A stretch of 64,000 nucleotides of DNA from an uncultured Acidimicrobiia bacterium (GTDB taxonomy: Bacteria; Actinomycetota; Acidimicrobiia; Spongiisociales; UBA5794): NCBI GenBank assembly GCA_963834375.1, contig CAWIBM010000001.1:453864-517863 (forward strand). Direction: 5' to 3'. This document shows, in pieces, positions 51,839 to 64,000 of the stretch. Within the stretch, counting starts at the first letter, position 1. Each line of letters starts with the position of its first letter. The position numbers were made by a program, and so were the translations under genes. Below the pieces are notes generated by a model that saw nothing but the letters and a program-made list of their open reading frames with translations, did no database searches and had not been told where the DNA came from.

Positions 51839-52180
51839 ATGAGCAGCGCAGAGGACAAGGAGGCGACCGCCGCCGGGCTGCGGCGGTGTGCCGCCGACCT
51901 CGAAGCCGTCTTCGACGGTCTGGTCACCCGGTCGATGTCGGCGTGGAGCTGCCCCGCCGCCACCGCGTTCGAGACGGACCTTCGGGACCACATCACCGCG
52001 CTCCAGACGGTCGCCGCCGATCTCCGGGCGAACGCCACCCGGCTCGAGGCGGCGGCCGACGCCCAGCGGGCCGCCGCCGAGGAGGCGATCGTCGGGGTCG
52101 ACCCGGGGGAGCCCGCGCCGATCGACGGCTGGTCCCCTTCACCGGGACCGACGCCGGCGCCGGTGGGCGGCCCCGTCTGA
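51839..52180 (+). CDS. WXG100-like partner protein (degenerate turn, Pro-rich tail)
   Basis: 113 aa from the ATG at 51839. Predicted helix-turn-helix size with W at the turn (TRSMSAWSCPAATAFETDL). C-terminal tail GVDPGEPAPIDGWSPSPGPTPAPVGGPV. Lies 22 nt after the first WXG100 gene and 18 nt before the ATPase. Confidence 0.5.
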   Translation: MSSAEDKEATAAGLRRCAADLEAVFDGLVTRSMSAWSCPAATAFETDLRDHITALQTVAADLRANATRLEAAADAQRAAAEEAIVGVDPGEPAPIDGWSPSPGPTPAPVGGPV

Positions 52181-52198
52181 CGGCTGCACTCACCCGGC

Positions 52199-55100
52199 AT
52201 GGTCCCCGTGGTCGTCGTCACCGACGAAGGACCGTTGGATTGCGAGATCGACGCCGACGACGACGCCACCGTCGGCGCCCTGCTCACCGCCCTCGGCCTG
52301 ACCGGCCCGATCTTCGTGGACGGGAGGCCGCTGGCTCCCGAGCTGACCCTCGCCGACGTCCTGACGGCCGGAGCCGTGCTCGCCACCGGCGCCGCCACGC
52401 CCGGGGATCAGCCGTCGCCGGGCCCGGGCGACGCCGAGCGCGAAGAGCACGACCGCTTCCGACTGGTGATCCTCGCCGGGAGGGGAGCAGGCATGGCGGT
52501 CGGGCTGGCCGAGGGTCGCCAGGTGGTCGGCTCCGGGGCGGGGTCAACGGTCACGCTGCGGGCCGGCGGCGTCGCCGATCGTCACGCCGTCCTCGATGTG
52601 ACCTCTGCCTCGGTCCACCTGGTGTCCAGGCGCGGGGCCAGGGCGCTCGACGGGGACACCGTGCTCGCCATCGGGGAGACCCTGGCCTGTGTCGTGCCGG
52701 TCCCCGACGCCACCCGCTCGCCGGTCCCGGGCTGCGGGCCGGCCATCGTGCACAATCGTCGGCGTCGACCGGCCCCGCCCGCTCCCTTACCGAGGGTGGT
52801 GCTCCCCGACCCTCCACCCGCCGAGCCCGCACCACGCCCGATGGGATGGGCGGCCTTGGCGATACCGGTGATCTTCGGCCTGGTGATGGCGGTCCTGGTC
52901 GACCCGAGGATGGCGCTGTTCGCACTGCTCGGCCCACTCGTCATGGCCGGGGGCCGGGTCGACGATCTCCGGCTGCGGCGCCGGGCCCGCCGCACCGCCA
53001 CCGCCACGAGTGCTTCCGCCGCCGCCACCCTCGCCGCCACCCTCGACCGGCGCCGCGCCGGAGAGCTCCGTCGCCGCCGCGCCGACCAACCCGGTGTGGC
53101 GGTTCTCGCCTGGTGGGTGGAACGCCGGTCGCCGCGGGTGTGGGAGCGGCGTCGCGGCGACGCCGACTTCCTCAGGCTCACCATCGGCTACGGGGACCTG
53201 CCGTGGTCCCCCGATCTCGCCGGCGATCCGGACAACGCGGCGGCCCCGTGGCCGCCGTCCTCGCCGGCCACCTCATGCCGGCCACTCCGCTCACCCTCGA
53301 CCTGGGCGGGCGGGTGCTCGGGCTCGTCGGTGACCGGGTCAACGCCCTCGAGCTGGGGCGCGGGCTGCTGTGCTCGGCCGCCGTGCTGCACGGCCCCTCC
53401 GACCTGGCGGTGGCGGTGGTGACCGACCGGCCCGCCGACTGGGACTGGGTGAAGTGGTTGCCGCACGTCATGGTGGCGCCGACCGACCGGCGCCGCCTGC
53501 TCGCCGGCGACGCCATCGAGACGGTGGCGGTGCTCGACTGGATCGCCACTCGCCCTGGCGCCGGACAGCAAAGGCCGGTCGTGCTGGTCGTGGTCGACCG
53601 CGGCCCGCTGACCGATCCTCTCGGGCCTGGCGGTGCGTCGGGTGCTCGGCGGCGCCACGGGCGACGTGGCCGGCATCGTCCTGGCGGACGGGGAGGACGA
53701 TCTCCCCGCCGAGTGCACCGACCTGGTCGACTGCGGGCACCGCCGCGCCCGGCTCGAGCACCGGGGAGGGATCGATGGAGCTCGCCCCCGCCGGGGCGGT
53801 GGCCTCGGTCGCCGTCACCCTGGCCAGGGGCCTCGCCAGGTACCGCGATCCCGACCAGGTCGATCCCGGTGCCGGGCTGCCCCGGGCGGTCAGGCTGCTC
53901 GAGGCCGCCGGCTCGGCCGGCCCGTCCTCCGAGGAGCTGATCGGGCGCTGGTCGGACGGGGGCGCGGGCCTCGATGCGGTGCTGGGGGTGACCGCCACCG
54001 GACCGATGCGCATCGACCTCGCCGCCGCCGGGCCCCACGCCCTGGTCGCCGGGACCACCGGGTCGGGCAAGAGCGAGCTGCTGCGCACGCTGGTCGCCTC
54101 GCTGGCCCTGGCCCACGACCCGGAGCACGTCAACTTCGTCCTCGTCGACTACAAGGGCGGGAGTGCCTTCGACGCCGCCGTGCGCCTGCCCCACACGGTC
54201 GGCCTGGTCACCGACCTCGACGGCGGCCTGGCCGATCGGGCGCTGCGGTGCCTCGAAGCCGAGCTCCGCCACCGGGAGCGGGAACTGCGCACCCTCGGTG
54301 CACCCGACATCGAACGCTTCCGAACCCTCGGAGGACGGCTGCCGAGGATGTTGATCGTGGTCGACGAGCTGGCCGCCCTGGCCCGCGAGCTACCCCGATT
54401 CGTCGGTTCCCTGGTCGACATCGCAGCCAGGGGACGCAGCCTCGGCATCCACCTCGTGCTCGCCACCCAGCGGCCGGCCGGGGTGGTGAGCGATGCCATC
54501 CGGGCCAACACCGACATCCGCGTCGCCCTCAGGGTCACCGACCGCGCCGACTCCACCGACGTGCTGGGTGACCCGGCGGCGGCAGCGATCGGCCGCGACC
54601 TGCCCGGCCGCGGGCTGGTCCGCCTCGGCCCCGGCGACCTGGTCCCCTTCCAGGCGGCGACGGTATCCGCCGGTCCGGCCACCGCCGGCACGGTGACCGT
54701 CCGGCCCTTCCGGTTCGGCCACGATCCGGGGGATGGGCCGCATCCCGTCCGGTCCGCTGCCGAAAGGCCCGAGCCGACCGACCTGGAACGGCTGAGCGCG
54801 GCGGCGGTCGAGGCGGCGGCCCGGCTCCGCCTACCGTCCCCGCGCCGGCCGTGGCCGGAGCCGCTCCCCGGTCGCCTCAGCACCGACGACCTGTCGCCGG
54901 CGGTATCCGGTGACGGTGTTCCGGTGGGCCTGGCCGACGAGCCGGATCGGCAGCGCACCGTCCCGTTCACGTGGTCGCCGGCGGAGGGCAACCTCGGGCT
55001 GTACGGCGCGCCGGGGTCCGGCCTCACCACCGCCCTGGAGACGGTGGTCCTCGGACTGGTCGCCGGCCACGCCACCGATCCGGTCGACATCTACGTCGTG

Positions 55101-56305
55101 GACGCCCCCGGCGACCTGGGCCGGCTCTCCCGGCTGGCGGCGGTGGGAGCCGTGGTGTCACCCGGCGAGGTCGACCGGATGGCCCGCCTGGTCAGGATGC
55201 TGCTGGCCGGGATCGACCGAGCGGCGCGCCCCAGGTGGTCGCCGGCACACCGACACGGTGACGGTGCTGGTGGTGGACGGCCTCGAGGCGGTGTTGCGCT
55301 CCCTCGACACCGCCGACTCCGCGGCGGCACGCGACGGGCTCCTGCGGGTGATCGCCGAGGGCGTCGGCGGGGGATCTGGTCACGGTGTTCGCCACCTCCC
55401 GGCCCGGGGGCCTGCCTGCCCTGGTGGAGGCGGCGGTGGCCCACCGGCTCGTGCTCCGCCAATCGGACCCGCTCGGGGCGGCGGTGCTCGGGGTGCGCGG
55501 CGTCGACGACCTCGTCCCCGGTCGGGCGATCCACGCCGGCACCAACCGACACGTCCAGATCGCCGTGCCCGGCGCCGGGCTGGCCCACGCCGCCGAGACG
55601 ATCGAAGTCGGTGCCCGGGCACCGGCCGCGGTGGGTGTCCTCCCCGAAGACGTGGGCTCGGTGGAGGTCGAACACCTGGTCGACGTGAAGACGGATCGCT
55701 GGGCGCTCCCCGTCGGCATCGGCGACGCATCCTTGTCCCCGGTTGGCGTGTCGCTTCATCCCGGTGACCACGTCCTCGTCGTTGGCGGGCCCGGAACCGG
55801 AAAGACCAGTCTCCTCGCCGCTTTCGCCGGGGTCGTCCACCGCCGGGAGACGCCAGGTGACGCGAGCAGGGTGCGGGTGCTGGCCACCGGCGATGCCCTC
55901 GCCGGGCTGGTGCCCGAGGACGTCGAGCCGGTCGCCGGCGCCGACCTCGCCGACCTGGTCGCCGAGCTCACCGCCTCAGACGAAGCAGCGCTCCTGCTCG
56001 TCGACGACGCCGATGCCACCGCGCCGCCGGGCCTCGGCGAGGTCATCGAGGCGCTGCTGGCAGCCCGCCGGCCGCGCCTGCACCTCGTGGTGACGGCCCG
56101 CCCCGCGGTCAAGGCGCTCCACGGTCATTGGGCCAGGGGGCTCACCGCATCCCGGACCGGGATCTGGCTCGGCCCGTCAGTCGGTGTCGACGCCGACCTG
56201 TGGCACACGCCGATGCCGAGGCGGTTCCCCGCCCGCCTCCCGCCGGGTCGTGGGTTGCTCGTCGCCAACGGTGGCAGCGAGCTCGTCCAGGTGATGCGGC
56301 TGTGA
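52199..56305 (+). pseudogene. EccC/EssC-like FtsK/SpoIIIE type VII secretion ATPase (about 1,370 aa) with N-terminal beta-grasp-like and FHA-like segments; 5 frame changes as assembled
   Basis: Frame path: 52199-~53245, ~53245-~53620, ~53620-~53770, ~53770-~55215, ~55215-~55375, ~55375-56305. Two TM helices: MGWAALAIPVIFGLVMAVLV and ALFALLGPLVMAGG. Four P-loop-like modules: GLVGDRVNALE (degenerate), GTTGSGKSELL + LIVVDELAAL + HLVLATQRP, GAPGSGLTTAL + VLVVDGLEAV, and GGPGTGKTSLL + LLLVDDADA. Confidence 0.8.
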
Positions 56306-56310
56306 CACAC

Positions 56311-56441
56311 CCGCCGAGCAGGGCTCGGCTCCTCCCGCAGATGGGGCCCCTACCCCATCGCGGGCCGTGAAGTTCCCCGCCGAGCAGGGCTCGGCTCTTC
56401 CCGCAGATGGGGCCCCTACCCATCGCGGGCCGTGAAAGAGG
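56311..56441. repeat. Copies C1 and C2 (tandem, 66-nt period) of the dispersed palindromic element
   Basis: Unit: ccgccgagcagggctcggctc(c/t)tcccgcagatggggcccctacc(c)catcgcgggccgtgaa. Each unit has two hairpins: gccgagc-agg-gctcggc and cccgcagatgggg-cccta-ccccatcgcggg (56334-56364 and 56400-56429). C2 lacks one c in the right arm. The element starts 6 nt after the ATPase stop. Confidence 0.9.
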
Positions 56442-56968
56442 CTGTACGCTCCGGCGGCGTGGACGGCATCGACGCCAACGGCTACCGGCGAATCCTCGGC
56501 CTGCGGGCGGTTCGCGACTTCGCCGCCGAGCCGCTCGACCCGACCCACCTGGAGATGATCCTCGAGGCAGCCCGGTGGACAGGGTCGGCCAAGAACCGGC
56601 AGGATTGGTCGTTCGTGGTCCTCGACGATCCGGATGCGAAGCGGGCAGTGGCCGCCGCCGGCGACTTCACCGGTCCGATGCTGGCGGCACCCGTGGCGAT
56701 CGCCATCGTCCAGGAGCCCGGCGGCTACGAGTTCGACAGCGGCCGGCTCGCGCAGAACATCATGCTCGCCGCCGATGCGGTGGGGGTGGCGTCCTGCCCG
56801 GTCACGCTGCACCGCGACGGTGAGGCCGCCTCCGCTCTCGGACTGCCATCCGACCGCAGATGCCGGTATGCGATCGCCCTCGGCTACCCGGGCGACCGGG
56901 CACGTGGCTCGCTCGGCGGCGGTCGCAAGCCGCTGTCCGATCTGGTCCGCCGGAACCGGTACCGCTGA
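56432..56968 (+). CDS. Nitroreductase family protein
   Basis: 178-aa ORF: LRAVRDFAAEPLDPTHLEMILEAARWTGSAKNRQDWSFVVL...GRLAQNIMLAADAVGVASCP...RYAIALGYP. The GTG at 56432 lies inside repeat unit C2, so the start could instead be the in-frame GTG at 56459. Confidence 0.8.
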   Translation: MKEAVRSGGVDGIDANGYRRILGLRAVRDFAAEPLDPTHLEMILEAARWTGSAKNRQDWSFVVLDDPDAKRAVAAAGDFTGPMLAAPVAIAIVQEPGGYEFDSGRLAQNIMLAADAVGVASCPVTLHRDGEAASALGLPSDRRCRYAIALGYPGDRARGSLGGGRKPLSDLVRRNRYR

Positions 56969-57045: not shown

Positions 57046-57206
57046 AGTGACTCAGGCGCGGCAGTGTGCTTGGCTGGAGGCCGCGGCGGCGGGCGGTGGC
57101 CCGCCAACCTGAGCCGATCGACCGATCGTCCTCGAACCCGGCGACGGTTACGCTGCGACGGGCGCCAAGGCGCATATTCCGGTACGCCGGAGGGGGGCAG
57201 AGACAA

Positions 57207-60200
57207 GTGAAGTTCCGAATCGCCGCGGGGATCGTCCTCGCCGGCATCCTGCTCGTCGGGGCGTACCTGGGTGGTGTCGTCCTCGAAGGCTCGGCCGGCG
57301 GGGGTTGGTCCCACCAGGCGGGCGAGGGGTTCGACGCCGAGCGCGTCATGGTGCGCACGTTCGAGCTGGGCGTACCCAACCTCCTCCTGCTCGTCGACCC
57401 GGTCACCGGCGAGCTCGACGATCCTGAAGTGGCCGCAGCCGTCGCCGCCATGTCCGAGGATCTCGCCTCGTACACGGGCATCACCCAGCTCGAGTCGTAC
57501 TGGAGCCTCGGCGGGCCGGAAACGTATGCCAGCGATGACGGGAGCCTCGGGCTGGTCACCGCCAGGATCGGCGGGTCGGAGGGCGGGCTGGCCGGCCGTG
57601 CCGACACGGTGTTGTCCAGCATCGACTACGACGACTCGGTCATCGACGTGAGCGCCGGCGGCTCAGCAGTGGTGCAGCGGGATGCGCGCGAGGAGACGCT
57701 GGGCTCGGTGATCCCGCTGGGCGTCGCCTTCCTGCTCGCCATCGGGCTGGTCCTGCTGTTCCTGCGTAACGTGCTCGCCACCGGCTTCGTCGCGCTGACG
57801 TCGGCGGTGGCCGTCTCCATCTCGCTCATAGCACTGTGGGGGCTGGAGCGGCTGGTCACCGTCACCACGACGGCGGTGCTGATCGCAGTGGCGATGGCGT
57901 GGGGCTGCGCCACCGCCGGAGGATTCGTGTTCGGCCATCGGTTCGTCGCCGAACGGCGTGCCGGCGCCGGCCGCCCCGCCGCCGTGGTCGCCACCGTGGG
58001 CACTGCCGGGCGCACGGTGGCGATCGCCAGTGCCGTGGTCGCCGCCGTGGTCTTCACCCTGTGGCTGATGCCGACGGCGATCATGAGGTCGACGGCCTAC
58101 GCCTCCACGATCGCCGTGCTGGCGGCCGGCCTGGCCAGCGTGCTCGTGCTCGGCTTCCTGCTCTCGCTGTTCGGGGCGGGCATGGCCACCGGCGACGGAT
58201 TGCGCCAGCCCGCCGCCCGACCCGGCCTCGGCGATCGGGTGACTGCCATCGCCTCCAGATGGCCCGTCGTCACCGTTGGCTTGGCGATCCTCGTCTTCGG
58301 GGGTGTGTCGCTCGTCGCCCTCGTCGGCCTCAATACCGGCGAGACCACCGCCGAGTCGCTCCCGACCTCGGCGGCGAGTCGACAAGTGGCGGGGACGTTC
58401 GCCGAAGAGTTCGCCGTCGACGAGGTCGATGGCCCCTTCGTCATCGGTCCCAACATCGAGTTCGGTGATGCCCCCGCCCAGCTGGCGGAGTACACGTCGA
58501 GCCTCTCGTCGATCGGCGACGTGGCCAGGACAGACTCGGCTCAGGGCAGCTACGCCGCCGGCGTCGCCGTCGACACCCCGGAGCCGCTCACCGCACGCCT
58601 CGCCAGCGACCGGGCCAACCTCGTCAGGGCCCCGCTCTCGGTGCCGGCCGACTCGACAGAGGCGCAGGCCACTCTCGAGGAGATGGCGGAGGTGGCAGCG
58701 CCCTTCCGCGCCGACATCGGCGGGACCACGGTCCGCCACATGGCCACGGCCGCAGCCGTGGATGCCAGGGCGCCGTTCCTCGTTGCGGGTGCCGTGCTCG
58801 CCATCCTGCTGCTCGTCGCCTGGTTGCTCCATGGATGGCGGATGTCGCTTCGCCTCGCCGTTGCCGCCGTGCTGTCCGCATCGGGGTCGGTGCTGGTGGT
58901 GCGCCTGGGGTTCGTCGACGGCCTGCTCACCGATTTGCTCGGCTCCTCCCAGGTGGGCACGCTCGACGCCTTCGCCGCCCCGATGGCGTGGACGGTCGGG
59001 CTGGCGCTCGTCGCCGGCTGGTTGGTCCTCGGCTGGGGCTCGGCGCGCGAGGCGTTCGATGTCAGCGGTGGCTCCTCTGGTGCGGTGATCCGGTCACTCT
59101 CAGCCACCCGGCGCACCCACCTCGCCACCGGGGTGTTGCTCTGGCTGCCGTTCCTGGCACTGGCGGTCAACGGCTGGCGTACCCAGCAGATGATCGCCAC
59201 CGCAGTCCTCGGCGCCGGGCTCCTCGCGGTCACGGTGGGCAGCTTCGTTGTCGTCCCGGCGCTGTTCGCCCTCGCCCCCGGGCGGATGTGGCCACGCCGG
59301 GTCGACGGCAGTGTTGACACGGTCTACCCCGAGACGGCAGCAGCGGCCTGGCTCGTCGGGGCGGTGCCGCAGGTGATCCCGTCGGACGCACCGTTGCCGG
59401 CGACGGCTCCCGAACGAGCCACGGCGTCGCCTGCGCCGGTCGAGCCGACGGTCGATGTCGCAACACCGGTCGCCGTCGCAGCCGTCGTCGATACCGAGGT
59501 CGCCAATCCTGCCGAGCCCGAGGCCGATGCATCGTCCGATGACGTCTCGGTGCGGCGCCGCCGGCGGGCTCGCTGGCGGCGGACCTCCGCCACCGGGGCC
59601 ATCGTGACCGCCACCGAGGCTGACCAGGCGATTCCCGATGCGTCAGACCTCGATGCTGTCCCCGGCGATGTCCCCGATGTTGTGCCGGATGATGTCCCAG
59701 ACGATGTGCCGGATGATGTCCCAGATGTTGTGCCCGGTGATGTCCCCGATGATGTGATTGTCGGCGAGGCGGTCGCACCCATGGAGCCGGCGGATGCGGA
59801 TCTCCCGTCTCCCGAAGCCGCAGTCGAGCCGGAGCCCGAGCCCGCCGTCTCGAGCGAGGAGCCGGCCGAACCGGCCGTGGAGCCGGATTCCGAGCTGCCG
59901 GTCGAGGCGGCAGTGGAGCCGGACACCGAGCCGGCCCCCGAGGTGGTGGCCGAAGCCGCCGACGACGAAGTCGAGCCGGTCGAGGCCGTGGAGGATCTGC
60001 CTGAGGGGGCCGAGCCGGTCGCCGAAGCCGTGGTCGACGAAGTCGAGCCGGTCGAGGCCGTGGAGGATCTGCCTGAGGGGGCCGAGCCGGTCGCCGAAGC
60101 CGTGGTCGACGAAGTCGAGCCGGTCGAGGCCGTGGAGGAACTTCTCGAGGAGACCGAGCAGATCGCCGCCGTCGAGGTCGAGGTGCCGGCCAAGGTCACC

Positions 60201-60578
60201 CGTCCCCTCGCCGCCGTCGACGTCATCAGCCTCACCGAGTCGGTGATCGCCTCCATCGAAGCCGACGTACCGTTCACCACCGAGATCGGCTCGGGGTACG
60301 TGGCCAACCCTTCGAACAACCTGTCCCGGGTGATGGAGGCGATCCTGAGGGATGCCTCCCGACGAGGCGGCGACGAGGTCCTCGTCTACGGCCACGCCGC
60401 CGCCGGTCGCTACCGGTGGATGGTGGTCGACTCCGGCCCTCGGGCCGACCACGACCCCGAGAGGGCGAGGACGCTGGCGGAGGCCCAGCGCTTCATCCGC
60501 CGGGTCGGCGGCGTCGTGGAGTGCCGGCCCGAAGGCGACTTCACCGTCTTCGTGGTCGAGATCCCTATGGCGAGCTGA
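57207..60578 (+). CDS. MMPL/RND-superfamily transporter fused, via a long acidic repeat linker, to a C-terminal degenerate histidine-kinase-like ATPase (HATPase_c-like) domain
   Basis: GTG at 57207 follows a ggagggggg SD. 1,123 aa, intact. Topology is TM1, a ~190-aa loop, TM2-6, TM7, a ~180-aa loop, TM8-12 (MMPL pattern). Next come about 260 aa of D/E/P/V repeats. The last ~130 aa read NLSRVMEAILRDASRRGGDEVLVYGH...YRWMVVDSGPRAD...AQRFIRRVGGVVECRPEGDFTVFVVEIP. Confidence 0.7.
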   Translation: MKFRIAAGIVLAGILLVGAYLGGVVLEGSAGGGWSHQAGEGFDAERVMVRTFELGVPNLLLLVDPVTGELDDPEVAAAVAAMSEDLASYTGITQLESYWSLGGPETYASDDGSLGLVTARIGGSEGGLAGRADTVLSSIDYDDSVIDVSAGGSAVVQRDAREETLGSVIPLGVAFLLAIGLVLLFLRNVLATGFVALTSAVAVSISLIALWGLERLVTVTTTAVLIAVAMAWGCATAGGFVFGHRFVAERRAGAGRPAAVVATVGTAGRTVAIASAVVAAVVFTLWLMPTAIMRSTAYASTIAVLAAGLASVLVLGFLLSLFGAGMATGDGLRQPAARPGLGDRVTAIASRWPVVTVGLAILVFGGVSLVALVGLNTGETTAESLPTSAASRQVAGTFAEEFAVDEVDGPFVIGPNIEFGDAPAQLAEYTSSLSSIGDVARTDSAQGSYAAGVAVDTPEPLTARLASDRANLVRAPLSVPADSTEAQATLEEMAEVAAPFRADIGGTTVRHMATAAAVDARAPFLVAGAVLAILLLVAWLLHGWRMSLRLAVAAVLSASGSVLVVRLGFVDGLLTDLLGSSQVGTLDAFAAPMAWTVGLALVAGWLVLGWGSAREAFDVSGGSSGAVIRSLSATRRTHLATGVLLWLPFLALAVNGWRTQQMIATAVLGAGLLAVTVGSFVVVPALFALAPGRMWPRRVDGSVDTVYPETAAAAWLVGAVPQVIPSDAPLPATAPERATASPAPVEPTVDVATPVAVAAVVDTEVANPAEPEADASSDDVSVRRRRRARWRRTSATGAIVTATEADQAIPDASDLDAVPGDVPDVVPDDVPDDVPDDVPDVVPGDVPDDVIVGEAVAPMEPADADLPSPEAAVEPEPEPAVSSEEPAEPAVEPDSELPVEAAVEPDTEPAPEVVAEAADDEVEPVEAVEDLPEGAEPVAEAVVDEVEPVEAVEDLPEGAEPVAEAVVDEVEPVEAVEELLEETEQIAAVEVEVPAKVTRPLAAVDVISLTESVIASIEADVPFTTEIGSGYVANPSNNLSRVMEAILRDASRRGGDEVLVYGHAAAGRYRWMVVDSGPRADHDPERARTLAEAQRFIRRVGGVVECRPEGDFTVFVVEIPMAS
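59655..59755. repeat. 12-bp in-frame microrepeat encoding (D/V)VPD units
   Basis: gatgtccccgatgttgtgccggatgatgtcccagacgatgtgccggatgatgtcccagatgttgtgcccggtgatgtccccgatgatgtg encodes DVPDVVPDDVPDDVPDDVPDVVPGDVPDDV. Confidence 0.9.
59964..60140. repeat. 72-bp perfect tandem repeat (2 full units plus a partial third) inside the MMPL linker
   Basis: The unit gacgaagtcgagccggtcgaggccgtggaggatctgcctgagggggccgagccggtcgccgaagccgtggtc starts at 59964, 60036 and 60108. It encodes DEVEPVEAVEDLPEGAEPVAEAVV. Confidence 0.95.
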
Positions 60579-60634: not shown

Positions 60635-61648
60635 GTGAAGTTCGCCTGGCTGTGCAGCCACGAGTCGTATCAACCAGAGGTCCTGGTCGATCAGGCGGTG
60701 CTCGCCGAGCAGGTCGGGTTCGACGTCGTGCTCGGCTCCGACCACTTCCATCCCTGGGTCGACGACGTCTCCGCCGCCGGATTCGTGTGGAGCTGGCTGG
60801 GGGCGGCGGCGATGCGCACCGAGCGGGTGGAGTTCGCCACCAGCGTGACCTGCCCGCTGTTCCACTACCACCCGGCGCTGGTCGCCCAAGCGGCGGCCAC
60901 GGTCGACCGGCTCAGCGGCGGCCGGTTCATGCTCGGCGTGGGCACCGGGGAGAACATCAACGAGGGCCCCATGGGGTTCGCCTTCCCCGGGTACACCGAG
61001 CGGATCGCCAGGATGGAGGAGGCGCTCGACATCATCCACCGGCTCCTCGCCGGGGAGAAGGTCGACCATGACGGCCGCTACTACACCGTCGACAAGGCCA
61101 AGCTCTACAGCCCCCCGATGGGGCGGGTGCCGGTGCTGATGGCAGCGGGCGGCCCCAAGTCGGCGGCGTTCGCCGGCGCCAACGCCGAGGGGCTCATCAG
61201 CAGCGTGAAGGACCCGGCCGAGACCGTTGCCACGGTGATCGAGCCGTTCCGCCGGGCACGGGAGTCCGCCCCTGAGCATCCGCAAAGTGGCTCCGGGATC
61301 GTGCTCGCCACCCGATGGGTGGTGGCCGCCACCGACGCCGACGAGGCGTGGGAGGCATTGGGGAGCATGCGCGGGCTACGGGCCCCGGGCCGCCTCGACG
61401 CCGTCGACCCGATGGAGCTGCGGGTGCGCGCCGATGAGATGGACCGGGCCGACATCCTCGATCGCTACACCGTCGTGTCCGACCCCGGACAGCTGATCGA
61501 CGCCTACGTTCCGCTGGTCACCGACGTCGGCGCAGACATCGTCGCCATCCAGGTGGCGTCGGTCGATCCCGATGCCACCTTGCGGATGCTCGGCGCCGAG
61601 GTCCTGCCCGAGCTTCGCCGCCTCGACCAGGCCGGGGCGCGCCGGTGA
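60635..61648 (+). CDS. Luciferase-like (LLM class) F420-dependent oxidoreductase
   Basis: 337-aa intact ORF: KFAWLCSHESYQPEVLVDQAVLAEQVGFD.V.GSDHFHPW...RFMLGVGTGENINE...GRVPVLMAAGGPKSA. This pattern is what I recall for the F420-dependent G6PD-related LLM subgroup. Confidence 0.7.
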   Translation: MKFAWLCSHESYQPEVLVDQAVLAEQVGFDVVLGSDHFHPWVDDVSAAGFVWSWLGAAAMRTERVEFATSVTCPLFHYHPALVAQAAATVDRLSGGRFMLGVGTGENINEGPMGFAFPGYTERIARMEEALDIIHRLLAGEKVDHDGRYYTVDKAKLYSPPMGRVPVLMAAGGPKSAAFAGANAEGLISSVKDPAETVATVIEPFRRARESAPEHPQSGSGIVLATRWVVAATDADEAWEALGSMRGLRAPGRLDAVDPMELRVRADEMDRADILDRYTVVSDPGQLIDAYVPLVTDVGADIVAIQVASVDPDATLRMLGAEVLPELRRLDQAGARR

Positions 61649-61702
61649 TGGCGGGCTCGGCTTCGACGCGCACCTAACCTCCCGCCACCCAGCCTGGAGG
61701 CG

Positions 61703-62875
61703 GTGCCTGACAGCGGATCGAACCGGTCTCGGGGTCGGCGAGGTCGCCACCCGGTTCTTCACCTTCGGCTCGGCGGCTGACCCGTTCTCATTGGCGGCTG
61801 GAGGGTCGCTCGACGAGGTGACGCTGGCCTACGAGACGTACGGCGCCCTCGACGCCGACGGCTCCAACGCCATCCTGCTGTTCCACGCCCTGAGCGGGAG
61901 CCAGCACGCCGCCGGCGTCAACCGGGACGTGCCCGGGCTCGGAACCCGGTGGACCGAGGAGATGCACCTCGGCTGGTGGGACGGGCTGATCGGCCCGGGG
62001 CGGTCCATCGACACCGATCGGTGGTTCGTGGTCTGCGCCAACTACCTGGGTGGCTGCTACGGATCGAGCGGGCCGCCGTCTGCCGACCCCGCCACCGGGC
62101 GGCCCTATGGCCCGAGCTTCCCGGCGGTCGGCTTCTGCGACATGGTCGAGGCCGACCTGCGACTGCTCGACCACCTCGGTGTCGGGCGGCTCCACGCGAC
62201 CATGGGAGGGTCGACCGGGGGGCTGATGGCCCTCTCGCTGGCCACCCGCCATCCCGACCGCGTCGGCCTGGTCATCCCGGTGGCCGCCGGGCTCGGGGTC
62301 ACCTCGCTGCAGGTGGTCCACAACTTCGAGCAGATCACCGCGATCACGTCCGACCCGGCCTTCGCCGGGGGGGAGTACGGGGCCGAACCGCCCGCAGCGG
62401 GCCTCGCCCTCGCCCGGATGATCGGGCACAAGACGTTCGTGTCGCTGTCGGCGATGCGGACCCGCGCCCGTGAGGAGATCGTCGAGGGCGCGGTCCACGG
62501 CTACCGCCTGAAGCACCCCCTGGAGTCGTACATGCGACATCAGGGCACCAAGTTCGTCGACCGCTTCGACGCCAACTCGTACCTGCGGATCATGGAGGCA
62601 TGGCAATCGGTCGACCTCCTCGCCGAGGCCGGGGTCGACGACTGGGACACGCTGTTCGGGCGGTGCCGGCGACAGCGGTGGGTGCAGTTCTCCATCGACT
62701 CGGACGTGTGCTTCTACCCGGAGGAACAGGTCGCCCTCGCCGCCGCGCTGTCCGCCGCCGGGGTCCCCAACCGGCGTCATCGAGGTCGCCTCGGACAGAG
62801 GGCCACGACGCCTTCCTGGTCGAGACGGATCGGCTCGCCGATGGGCTGCGCGCCACGCTCGAGGGTGAGTGGTGA
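61703..62875 (+). CDS. metX: Homoserine O-acetyltransferase (MetX); one frame change near 62775, 5' end uncertain
   Basis: FTFGSAADPFSLAAGGSLDEVTLAYETYGALDADGSNAILLFHALSGSQHAAG...WWDGLIGPG...FVVCANYLGGCYGSSGP...GGSTGGLMAL (nucleophile)...FSIDSDVCFYPEE. The tail VIEVASDRGHDAFLVETDRLADGLRATLEGEW is in the frame of ORF 62600..62875. No canonical in-frame start lies between 61649 and the conserved core; the GTG at 61703 works only with another frame correction. Confidence 0.8.
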
Positions 62876-63687
62876 CCAGATCGGTGACCGGCGATCGGCG
62901 CCGCTGGGGATGTTCGACTCGGGTGTGGGAGGCCTGTCCGTCCTCGCCGGCGTGCGGGAGCTCGTCCCGGAAGAACGGGTGTTGTACGTGGCCGACCAGG
63001 CCTGGGCGCCGTACGGCGAACGGAGCCTCATCGAGGTCAGGGAGCGGAGCTTCGCCGTGGTGCGGCGCCTCGTCGACCTCGGCGCCAAGGCCGTCGTCGT
63101 GGCCTGCAACACGGCGTCGGCGGCGGCGCTGCACGAGCTGCGACGCGCCATGCCCGACGTCCCGTTCATCGGGATGGAGCCGGCGGTGAAGCCCGCCGCC
63201 GCGCAGACGCAAGGGGGCGTGATCGGCGTCCTGGCCACGTCGGCGACGTTCCAGGGCGAGCTGTACGCCTCGGTGGTCGACCGGCACGCCGCCGGCGTCG
63301 AGGTGGTCGAACGGGTGGGGCGGGGGCTGGTCGAGCTGGTCGAGGCGCGTCGCCTCGACGATCCCGCCGTCGAGGCCGGTGTCGCCACCCACCTGGCACC
63401 GCTGGTCGACGCCGGGGTCGACACGCTCGTCCTCGGTTGCACCCACTACTCGTTCCTCGCCGGGATCATGCGGCGGCACCTCGGGGCCGACGGTCACGGT
63501 GATCGACCCGGCGCCGGCGGTGGCCCGGCAGGTGGTCAGGGTGCTGGACGAAGGCGACCTGCGGGCACCGCCGGGCGACGGTGGCGTGGTGTACCTCACC
63601 AGCGGCGACCCGATCCGGCTGGCGGACCAGGTGGAGCGCCTCCTCGACGACCCGAGCCCGGACACCGGCCGCTTCGAAATCCTGTGA
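62865..63687 (+). CDS. murI: Glutamate racemase MurI; one frame change near 63490
   Basis: The GTG at 62865 overlaps the metX end. PLGMFDSGVGGLSVL...VVVACNTASAAAL...FIGMEPAVKPAA...GVLATSATF...LVLGCTHYSFL. The tail VTVIDPAPAVARQVVRVL...TGRFEIL is in ORF 63379..63687. Confidence 0.9.
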
Positions 63688-63738
63688 TGCCCGCTCATGG
63701 TGACGTATCATGGCGGTCATCGACGTTGAGAGGCGGCC

Positions 63739-63984
63739 ATGGAGCGGACCGAACAGTACCCACCGGTGCTCGACACCGAGATGGTGGCCGAGTTGCTTGG
63801 CATGAACGTCCAGGTGGTGCGCCGGCTGGCCCGGGAGGGCCAGATCCCCTCGTACCGACTACCCGAGGGCCGGACCTACCGGTTCTTCCGCGACGAGGTC
63901 CTCGAGTGGTTGCGGGGATTCCCGGTACACCCCGACACCGCCGTCGACGGCGGCGTGCCGGTGTCGGTCGAGGACGAGGCCTGA
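63739..63984 (+). CDS. Excisionase-type / MerR-like helix-turn-helix DNA-binding protein
   Basis: 81-aa ORF: LDTEMVAELLGMNVQVVRRLAREGQIPSYRLPEGRTYRFFRDEVLEWL (HTH_17-like pattern). Confidence 0.7.
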   Translation: MERTEQYPPVLDTEMVAELLGMNVQVVRRLAREGQIPSYRLPEGRTYRFFRDEVLEWLRGFPVHPDTAVDGGVPVSVEDEA

Positions 63985-64000
63985 GCCGCGACGGATGACC

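Follow-up and report, generated by a model that had tools for sequence, protein, structure and literature searches.

Organization of the gene

The gene described here lies in a 64,000-nucleotide stretch of DNA (hereafter, the window; all coordinates refer to it unless a contig is named) from an uncultured Acidimicrobiia bacterium (assembly GCA_963834375.1, contig CAWIBM010000001.1, positions 453,864 to 517,863). It occupies positions 57207 to 60578 of the forward strand and comprises 1123 codons, without an internal stop in the translated frame, followed by TGA. A Shine-Dalgarno-like sequence, GGAGGGGGG, is directly visible at positions 57189 to 57197 (+), 9 nt upstream of the GTG start codon, and in the alignment this start matches the N termini of all orthologues. 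The encoded protein consists of three parts, all on the same strand: an MMPL/RND-fold membrane module (residues 1 to 712; 57207 to 59342), a disordered polyanionic linker (residues 713 to 1003; 59343 to 60215), and a C-terminal domain (CTD) of 120 amino acids (aa) (residues 1004 to 1123; 60216 to 60575) which we refer to as a pseudo-CA domain after its resemblance to the catalytic (CA) domain of histidine kinases. On balance, we infer that the protein probably acts as a noncatalytic, membrane-anchored adaptor or receptor that carries the pseudo-CA domain on a tether.

Approximately 23 close relatives were retrieved by a word-indexed search of 5.8 billion proteins. Most of these are 1030 to 1220 aa long and share the same layout, while a few are shorter. 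A scan of species-representative genomes yielded 14 loci, all of them in metagenome-assembled genomes (MAGs) of uncultured Acidimicrobiia. The reading frame is also unbroken in the related genomes, encoding 1053 to 1247 aa wherever the contig permits, and the CTD is always located at its end.

The three parts of the protein differ greatly in their degree of conservation. Among 20 orthologues, pairwise identity averaged 47.5% in the membrane module, 23.7% in the linker, and 85.8% in the CTD. When the genome of the window was compared with four other genera, the CTD was 82 to 88% identical, which is near the 88 to 92% obtained for EF-Tu, whereas the MMPL part reached only 36 to 41%. The much faster evolution of the MMPL part suggests that the main constraint acts on the CTD and not on the membrane module.

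Fold of the membrane module

Hydropathy and the secondary structure predicted by AlphaFold yielded 12 transmembrane (TM) segments with two large periplasmic porter loops, residues 27 to 165 and 376 to 520, which follow TM1 and TM7, respectively. This is the MMPL/RND topology that a preliminary description of the window, made from the DNA letters and translated frames, had assigned to the protein. The Pfam profile MMPL (PF03176) matched residues 74 to 326 with 45 bits (cutoff, 20.5 bits; E 9e-12), a weak score beside those of canonical paralogues of the same genome, which reach up to 198 bits. A phmmer search connected the protein to MmpL3 chains at an E value of about 5e-8. In the full-length AlphaFold model, the predicted local distance difference test (pLDDT) score was mostly 80 to 95 across residues 1 to 720. 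A Foldseek search with this model returned MmpL3, MmpL4, MmpL5, or a Mycobacterium smegmatis homologue for all of the best 33 Protein Data Bank (PDB) matches, with target-normalized template modeling (TM) scores of 0.61 to 0.81 and E values of 1e-16 to 7e-23. The predicted fold of the membrane module is that of MMPL proteins.

The last segment, TM12, ends near residue 693 and is followed by a conserved juxtamembrane motif, WP...DG.V..VYP.T.A, at residues 694 to 712. The module therefore ends near residues 693 to 712, which corrects the earlier estimate of approximately 790 residues for the membrane part. Based on hydropathy only, the two porter loops are similar in length (139 and 145 aa), which speaks against insertion of a large docking domain in the second loop. 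At the periplasmic end of TM1, an invariant GGGW.H..GE motif was observed (57297 to 57329; residues 31 to 41), at a site where canonical MMPLs carry GGF/W..P.SES.

Loss of the proton relay

In MmpL transporters, a pair of Asp-Tyr residues in each half of the protein constitutes the proton relay (PMC10171966). A gap-free alignment with seven canonical MMPLs placed Ala237-Gly238 (57915 to 57920, +) at the position of the pair in TM4 and Gly604-Trp605 (59016 to 59021, +) at the position of the second pair in TM10. All seven canonical proteins keep the strings ...IDY... in TM4 and ...MDY... in TM10, and the phmmer alignment to MmpL3 likewise set Ala237-Gly238 opposite the Asp-Tyr of its TM4 string IDYG. 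The Asp-Tyr pairs were absent from all 13 family members compared, where small or neutral residues were found instead. Scanning the predicted TM cores revealed no acidic residue in any of them and no other conserved intramembrane titratable residue. Two canonical MMPL paralogues encoded by the same genome retain the DY motifs in both halves. As both Asp-Tyr pairs are gone, ordinary proton-driven transport by the membrane module is unlikely, judging from its sequence. Of the initial label "transporter," the fold stands, and the functional part is weakened by the loss of both relay pairs in all members.

An alternative explanation is that the protein is a still-working MMPL lipid exporter that is energized noncanonically or by a partner, with the tail and the CTD merely regulating or localizing it, as does the C-terminal domain of MmpL3. 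Such a role would agree with a well-predicted MMPL fold, with porter loops that are conserved (44 to 51% mean identity), and with a gene that is single copy and retained in every sampled genome of six genera. Moreover, Cluster II MmpLs, MmpL3 among them, use a disordered cytoplasmic C-terminal domain for localization, partner binding, and phosphoregulation (PMC10171966). However, both pairs are absent from all members, no other titratable residue within the membrane is conserved, the same genome retains two canonical MMPLs with intact relays, and the MMPL part evolves far faster than the CTD. We regard this explanation as possible but rather unlikely.

Acidic linker

The region between the two folded modules consists of 27% Asp and Glu, 15% Pro, 18% Val, and 19% Ala and bears a net charge of about -67. 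AlphaFold predicted no secondary structure for residues 722 to 1003, at pLDDT values of 25 to 38. In 20 orthologues, the linker ranged from 198 to 384 aa and was always acidic, with a net charge of -14 to -99; in view of its low identity, it is its character rather than its sequence that is conserved. Two in-frame tandem repeats were detected by TRF: a 12-nt repeat of 8.8 copies encoding DVPD/VVPD units (59651 to 59756, +) and a 72-nt repeat of 3.2 copies with a 91% match that encodes a 24-aa acidic unit (59938 to 60168, +). In an orthologue that is 94% identical overall (P0002, locus L001), the DVPD array is missing and the 24-aa repeat region differs too. Tether length therefore varies between very close strains. 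The linker evolves fast, and its length is altered through repeat slippage.

A very acidic repeat tether had been proposed before, and it was confirmed here, although it measures about 290 to 300 aa instead of approximately 260 aa. The Arg-rich patch VRRRRRARWRR (residues 782 to 792; 59550 to 59582, +), previously taken for a stop-transfer signal, does not have this role, because it is located well inside the tail, about 90 residues beyond TM12. It is confined to the closest subclade.

Fold of the C-terminal domain

Profile searches did not reveal the identity of the CTD. Residues 980 to 1123 matched no Pfam or NCBIfam profile, including HATPase_c (PF02518), and the gene was not among the 14 PF02518 matches of its own genome. 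When the CTD was searched by phmmer against 1.84 billion cluster representatives, only members of this MMPL family were recovered, and no copy was found by itself or in another fusion. A match to GGDEF_GdpP (E 0.06) was so faint that it was treated as noise. Searching PDB sequences with a CTD profile returned only a spurious ThreeFoil repeat match and an AspRS fragment, and two weak matches within the own genome, an FAD oxidoreductase and a methyltransferase-type gene, were ascribed to chance.

Structure prediction was more informative. An AlphaFold model of the CTD built from 19 orthologous CTDs reached a pLDDT of 87 and a predicted TM score (pTM) of 0.83. Its elements follow the order strand-helix-strand-strand-helix-hairpin-helix-hairpin. 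A Foldseek search of the PDB with this model returned 346 matches at an E value of ≤0.001. The top 50 were all histidine-kinase entries aligned in their CA region (query-normalized TM scores, 0.64 to 0.80; E about 1e-7 to 4e-9), and the fold matches include AdeS, an EnvZ chimera, PhoQ, MprB, NtrB, HK853, WalK, CpxA, VanS, and RetS. Features of the ESM protein language model also pointed to GHKL/HATPase_c. The models show the CTD as a complete histidine-kinase catalytic (CA, Bergerat) fold minus the ATP lid. The reading of the last approximately 130 residues as such a fold, made before any model was available, was thereby substantiated.

Degeneration of the nucleotide-binding site

The N-box-like, G1-like, and terminal hairpin strings on which that reading had been based are present at residues 1038 to 1055, 1073 to 1081, and 1103 to 1120, respectively. 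BLASTP and hidden Markov model (HMM) alignments to bona fide kinases showed how far these motifs have changed. In the N-box remnant (60318 to 60371, +), the kinase string ...RNLLENARKYGG... is aligned with ...EAILRDASRRGG... of the CTD, and NLLEN is converted to AILRD. The first Asn is replaced by Ala1045 and the Mg-binding Asn by Asp1049, and both replacements are invariant across the members of the family. In the G1-box remnant (60423 to 60449, +), which retains Asp1075-x-Gly1077-Pro, the kinase string DNGPG stands opposite Asp1075-Ser-Gly-Pro-Arg. Asp1075 and Gly1077 are invariant, and the position of the second Gly varies among orthologues (R/E/Q/S/H). The F box and the G2 box (IFEHFEQ...GVGLGLP in the kinase; consensus, GxGLGL) and the lid have no counterpart in the CTD, and, counting from the G1 Asp to the following GG, the CTD lacks about 20 residues relative to the related kinase described below. 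The absence of a G2 box or ATP-lid glycine motif, already apparent in the preliminary description, thus corresponds to a segment that is missing in the alignments.

A DHp domain was sought ahead of the CTD. No HisKA profile matched, and the 290 preceding residues are disordered and nonhelical and contain no His box. The search for a DHp-only partner that would form a split kinase was extended to the remainder of the own genome. The lone HisKA candidate (C2:386362) turned out to be a normal kinase broken by frame errors, and a HisKA_3 protein at C2:850572 carries its own weak HATPase_c.

The strength of selection on the CTD was evaluated at the codon level. Third codon positions were invariant in 12% of cases, compared with 65 to 78% of first and second positions. 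The ratio of nonsynonymous to synonymous substitution rates (dN/dS) was about 0.1, at a dS near 1, which is close to saturation. Freely varying third positions together with this ratio indicate that the constraint acts on the protein and not on an RNA or DNA element. Purifying selection on the CTD is very strong and approaches that on EF-Tu. The few positions that do vary cluster in the shortened loop in place of the lid and include the former second G1 glycine. Conservation over nearly the whole surface of a noncatalytic domain suggests a tight interaction with a conserved partner.

It could also be argued that selection of this strength would suit an enzyme, and that the CTD is an active nucleotide-binding module, a kinase, ATPase, or nucleotide sensor, that phosphorylates a partner in trans or senses the energy state. 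Its Bergerat fold, the invariant Asp1075 and Gly1077, and an Asp at the Mg-binding Asn position are in line with this possibility. However, the F box, the G2 box, and the lid are deleted, the second G1 glycine and the loop replacing the lid are the most variable positions of the domain, HATPase_c gives no match, no DHp or His domain is present in cis, and no DHp-only gene was found in the own genome. In EnvZ, both ATP binding and kinase activity are lost when the corresponding Asn is changed to Asp (N347D). Judging from its motifs, the CTD is very unlikely to carry out ATP binding of the canonical type or phosphotransfer, and we consider an active module of any of these kinds improbable. Of the roles suggested earlier for the C-terminal module, which were the coupling of export to an ATP-binding or signaling function and docking, a docking domain fits better. 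The reading as an ATPase is weakened by loss of the N-box Asn, the second G1 Gly, and the F and G2 boxes and by the lack of any DHp/His domain.

Relationship to an orphan histidine kinase

To trace the CTD beyond its own family, a CTD profile was scanned in six frames over 401 Acidimicrobiia genomes. Outside the MMPL-CTD family, two genes only were matched, with E values of 6e-7 and 9e-7. The products are bona fide membrane kinases with HisKA and HATPase_c domains, and both fall into a single orthogroup (P0075/P0076). A BLASTP comparison of the CTD with one kinase of the orthogroup gave an E value of 7e-9, and identity was 35 to 37% over about 65 residues from the N-box helix to G1. The CTD HMM scored 17 to 29 bits on four members of the orthogroup, compared with 8.3 bits or less on 10 other kinases of the own genome. 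Similarly, hhalign aligned the CTD with the CA alignment of the orthogroup at a probability of 95.4% (E 1.8e-8), whereas the probability was 6.5% for five generic kinases, even though this alignment was collinear over 119 columns. The CTD is homologous to kinase CA domains and closest to those of this orthogroup, and it appears to descend from the CA domain of the orphan kinase.

The kinase itself is a membrane protein of 430 to 530 aa with HisKA and HATPase_c domains. None of the curated NCBIfam kinase equivalogs fits it. Throughout most genera of the family, its gene is flanked by genes for a PHP-domain protein and a glyoxalase.

The distributions of the two genes are complementary. Within the GTDB family to which the window belongs, the CTD was detected in 6 of 30 sampled genera and 13 of 61 sampled genomes, always as a single copy; the 376 genomes scanned from the other families of this class yielded none. 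Besides the window's own genome, all 12 sampled genomes of those six genera contain it. Orthologues of the orphan kinase (E ≤ 1e-85; 57 to 100% identity) are present in 21 of 24 sampled genera that lack the CTD. None was detected in the 13 CTD-bearing genomes, where the best matches were generic paralogues (E ≥ 1e-37) or nothing was matched at all. The order PHP-kinase-glyoxalase was seen in three CTD-less genomes (G399, G306, and G110; loci L052, L054, and L055). The syntenic slot could be read across in four CTD-bearing genomes (G000, which is the window's own, G418, G303, and G410), and in these the PHP and glyoxalase genes are separated by 350 to 1075 bp and the kinase is missing. The counts of kinase- and CTD-bearing genomes are not independent, because the genomes are related. 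In a tree of the LLM-class oxidoreductase encoded next to the MMPL-CTD gene, the CTD-bearing genomes and two CTD-less, kinase-bearing genera (g14 and g180) form one clade with 100/100 support. An orthologue of the relay-less MMPL that lacks the CTD was found neither in five CTD-less genomes nor in the database of 5.8 billion proteins.

The simplest reading of these data is that the CA domain of the orphan kinase would have become attached to the end of a divergent MMPL, in a single event or a few successive ones, and that the kinase would have been lost.

Integrity of the gene and genomic neighborhood

The window belongs to an assembly with numerous frame errors. The two canonical MMPL paralogues (C6:162620-164604 and C2:728244-730038) and a histidine kinase (C2:384300-388600) are each split across two reading frames, which fits frequent single-base insertion and deletion errors; none was found in the 3.4-kb MMPL-CTD gene. 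Independent soil DNA runs and rhizosphere metatranscriptome libraries contained contigs that match the gene with 0 to 1 differences and that span the nitroreductase gene, the MMPL gene including the CTD, and the start of the next gene. The contigs from RNA libraries are consistent with expression of the MMPL-CTD gene, although DNA carryover is possible. That the gene is a decaying pseudogene, or an artifact in which an error of assembly or frame in an error-prone MAG joined two genes, is extremely improbable despite the errors elsewhere. The same continuous frame, seen in 13 or more independent genomes and in some 20 database proteins of 1030 to 1220 aa, already refutes it, and the low dN/dS and the agreement with the independent contigs speak against it as well. 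The unbroken frame in the related genomes excludes a stop or frame error hidden in the linker, and the gene is fully intact, as had been stated at the outset. The three points on which the preliminary description depended, a Bergerat-fold match of the C-terminal domain, the MMPL/RND identity of the membrane part, and a single continuous gene, were each borne out.

A nitroreductase-family gene of 178 aa (56432 to 56968, +), identified by Pfam, is located directly upstream of the MMPL-CTD gene, a position that it also holds in each of the 10 related loci extending to this point. On the other side, 57 nt past the stop codon, begins an F420-dependent LLM-class oxidoreductase gene of the TIGR03557 family (60635 to 61648, +), which is adjacent in 11 of 14 related loci. 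This oxidoreductase occurs family-wide; in four CTD-less genomes, it is not found beside any MMPL or nitroreductase gene. It is followed by metX and murI.

Several further observations were made in the flanking DNA. Domains of an FtsK/SpoIIIE-type ATPase, resembling the ATPase of type VII secretion, extend over three overlapping frames at 51886 to 56305. In several genera, the related loci likewise carry such an ATPase upstream of the nitroreductase and MMPL genes. At 61572 to 63998, metX (homoserine O-acetyltransferase) and murI (glutamate racemase) are read as a single 808-aa frame. In L001, a near-identical relative, metX has its own stop and murI starts in another frame; most likely, the reading frame of the window has been shifted by an error of a single base close to the 3' end of metX. 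An extra C after position 56418 appears at nearly full depth in every sequencing run that covers this site, namely, one DNA run and two RNA libraries, and the depth across 56400 to 56546 is several times that of the flanks. The window is probably one base short at 56418, within a repeated (REP-like) element just upstream of the nitroreductase gene.

Proposed function

In the function that we propose, neither module would keep its ancestral catalytic cycle, with no proton-driven transport by the membrane part and no ATP-dependent phosphorylation by the CTD. The MMPL module would anchor the protein and possibly still bind an envelope lipid or sense the membrane. The polyanionic tether would provide reach, and the near-invariant pseudo-CA domain would bind a conserved cytoplasmic partner. 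This partner could be a response regulator, the DHp domain of another kinase, or a conserved protein of some other kind. Such binding would have parallels in known histidine pseudokinases and in the C-terminal tail of MmpL3, which binds partners.

A number of points weigh against an adaptor or receptor of this kind. All structural statements refer to predicted models. Loss of the canonical relay does not prove that all transport is lost, and facilitated or partner-driven lipid movement is possible. In the CTD, Asp1049 could in principle bind a metal, and the invariant, adenine-contacting Asp1075 leaves weak nucleotide binding possible. Descent from one particular kinase is deduced from just 35 to 37% identity over about 65 residues, no response regulator is adjacent to the orphan kinase gene, and the complementary distribution of the kinase and the MMPL-CTD protein may reflect a single evolutionary event. 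The inner order of the clade in the oxidoreductase tree is not resolved, and genera g14 and g180 may fall outside or inside the CTD-bearing group. Finally, the neighboring genes examined (nitroreductase, F420-dependent oxidoreductase, metX, and murI) provided no signaling clue or named partner.

A more specific version of the adaptor or receptor is that of a transporter turned receptor. The CA domain of the orphan kinase would have been transplanted onto a relay-less MMPL in the ancestor of a few genera, followed by loss of the kinase; the MMPL part would sense an envelope lipid or the state of the membrane, and the pseudo-CA domain would relay this information by docking, without phosphorylation. 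We put it forward tentatively, as a scenario that is possible but rather unlikely. If it is true, the protein would be a bacterial RND-fold receptor with a logic like that of SCAP or Patched and would represent a previously undescribed signaling class.

MMPL/RND proteins are regarded as exporters driven by protons, and CA domains are regarded as catalytic modules that bind ATP. In the present protein, the signatures of both have been removed, and yet the kinase remnant is conserved nearly as strongly as a translation factor. If the function proposed is correct, it would mean that an RND-fold protein can be repurposed as an anchor or sensor, that selection can maintain a bare lidless CA domain as an independent binding module, and that domain capture from a two-component kinase can replace that kinase. 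The family also offers a natural system for asking what role the long disordered C-terminal tails of MmpL3-type proteins play. It is confined to a handful of genera of uncultured soil Acidimicrobiia. The family deserves further study because both modules have lost their catalytic signatures, the CTD is conserved to nearly the degree of EF-Tu, and the related kinase has disappeared.

Comparison with known systems

The closest known proteins on the membrane side are the mycobacterial transporters MmpL3, MmpL11, and MmpL13 of Cluster II. They share with the present protein the twelve TM helices and the two porter loops, and the best structural matches are to MmpL3, MmpL4, and MmpL5. A large disordered cytoplasmic C-terminal extension, by which Cluster II is defined (PMC10171966), is common to both as well. 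Identity is only about 16 to 19%, however, and the Asp-Tyr pairs are lost in the present protein. Its tail, moreover, is polyanionic and ends in a folded, near-invariant CA-like domain, of a kind that the review cited above (PMC10171966) describes for no MmpL. A full-text literature search combining MmpL, HATPase, and C-terminal domain returned no paper, and a search for MMPL/histidine-kinase fusions returned only a general RND review.

On the cytoplasmic side, the CTD shares with the CA domain of the HisKA-type kinases P0075/P0076 its fold, the order of elements from the first strand to the C-terminal hairpin, the string ...GGD/E.VLV.G..., and the G1 residues Asp-x-Gly-Pro. Unlike these kinases, it has no second G1 Gly, F box, G2 box, DHp/His domain, or sensor domain of its own, and its N box reads AILRD in place of NLLEN.

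Membrane transporter folds joined to a kinase-type cytoplasmic module in one polypeptide are known from the SLC5/STAC kinases CbrA and CrbS and from the Amt-kinase Ks-Amt5, in which the transporter fold acts as a sensor (PMC7096432, PMC13022988, PMC5764959). These proteins possess complete DHp+CA cores and structured linkers (STAC, HAMP, or coiled coil), whereas the present protein combines an MMPL/RND fold with a disordered linker and a degenerate CA domain only. SCAP is an RND-fold, sterol-sensing protein that acts as a sensor and holds a partner by its cytoplasmic C-terminal domain. It is eukaryotic and has no detectable sequence relation to the present family, and the likeness is one of analogy only.

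Kinase-derived domains that are noncatalytic and act by binding have been described in DivL of Caulobacter (PMC4211667) and PsmA of Streptomyces (PMC12963549), and structures of the kinase region of RetS from Pseudomonas are among the fold matches of the CTD. With these proteins, the CTD would share selection on a kinase-derived domain without catalysis, for protein-protein interaction. DivL, PsmA, and RetS keep a DHp domain and a full-length CA domain with its lid, in contrast to the lidless CA domain that stands alone here on a disordered tether of approximately 300 aa. The MMPL-CTD protein may therefore work like a pseudokinase, although it is not a member of the DivL, PsmA, or RetS families. 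Each of its components is of a known kind; what appears to be undescribed is their combination, in which an MMPL fold that has lost its relay is united with a polyanionic tether and with a CA domain that has neither lid nor DHp.

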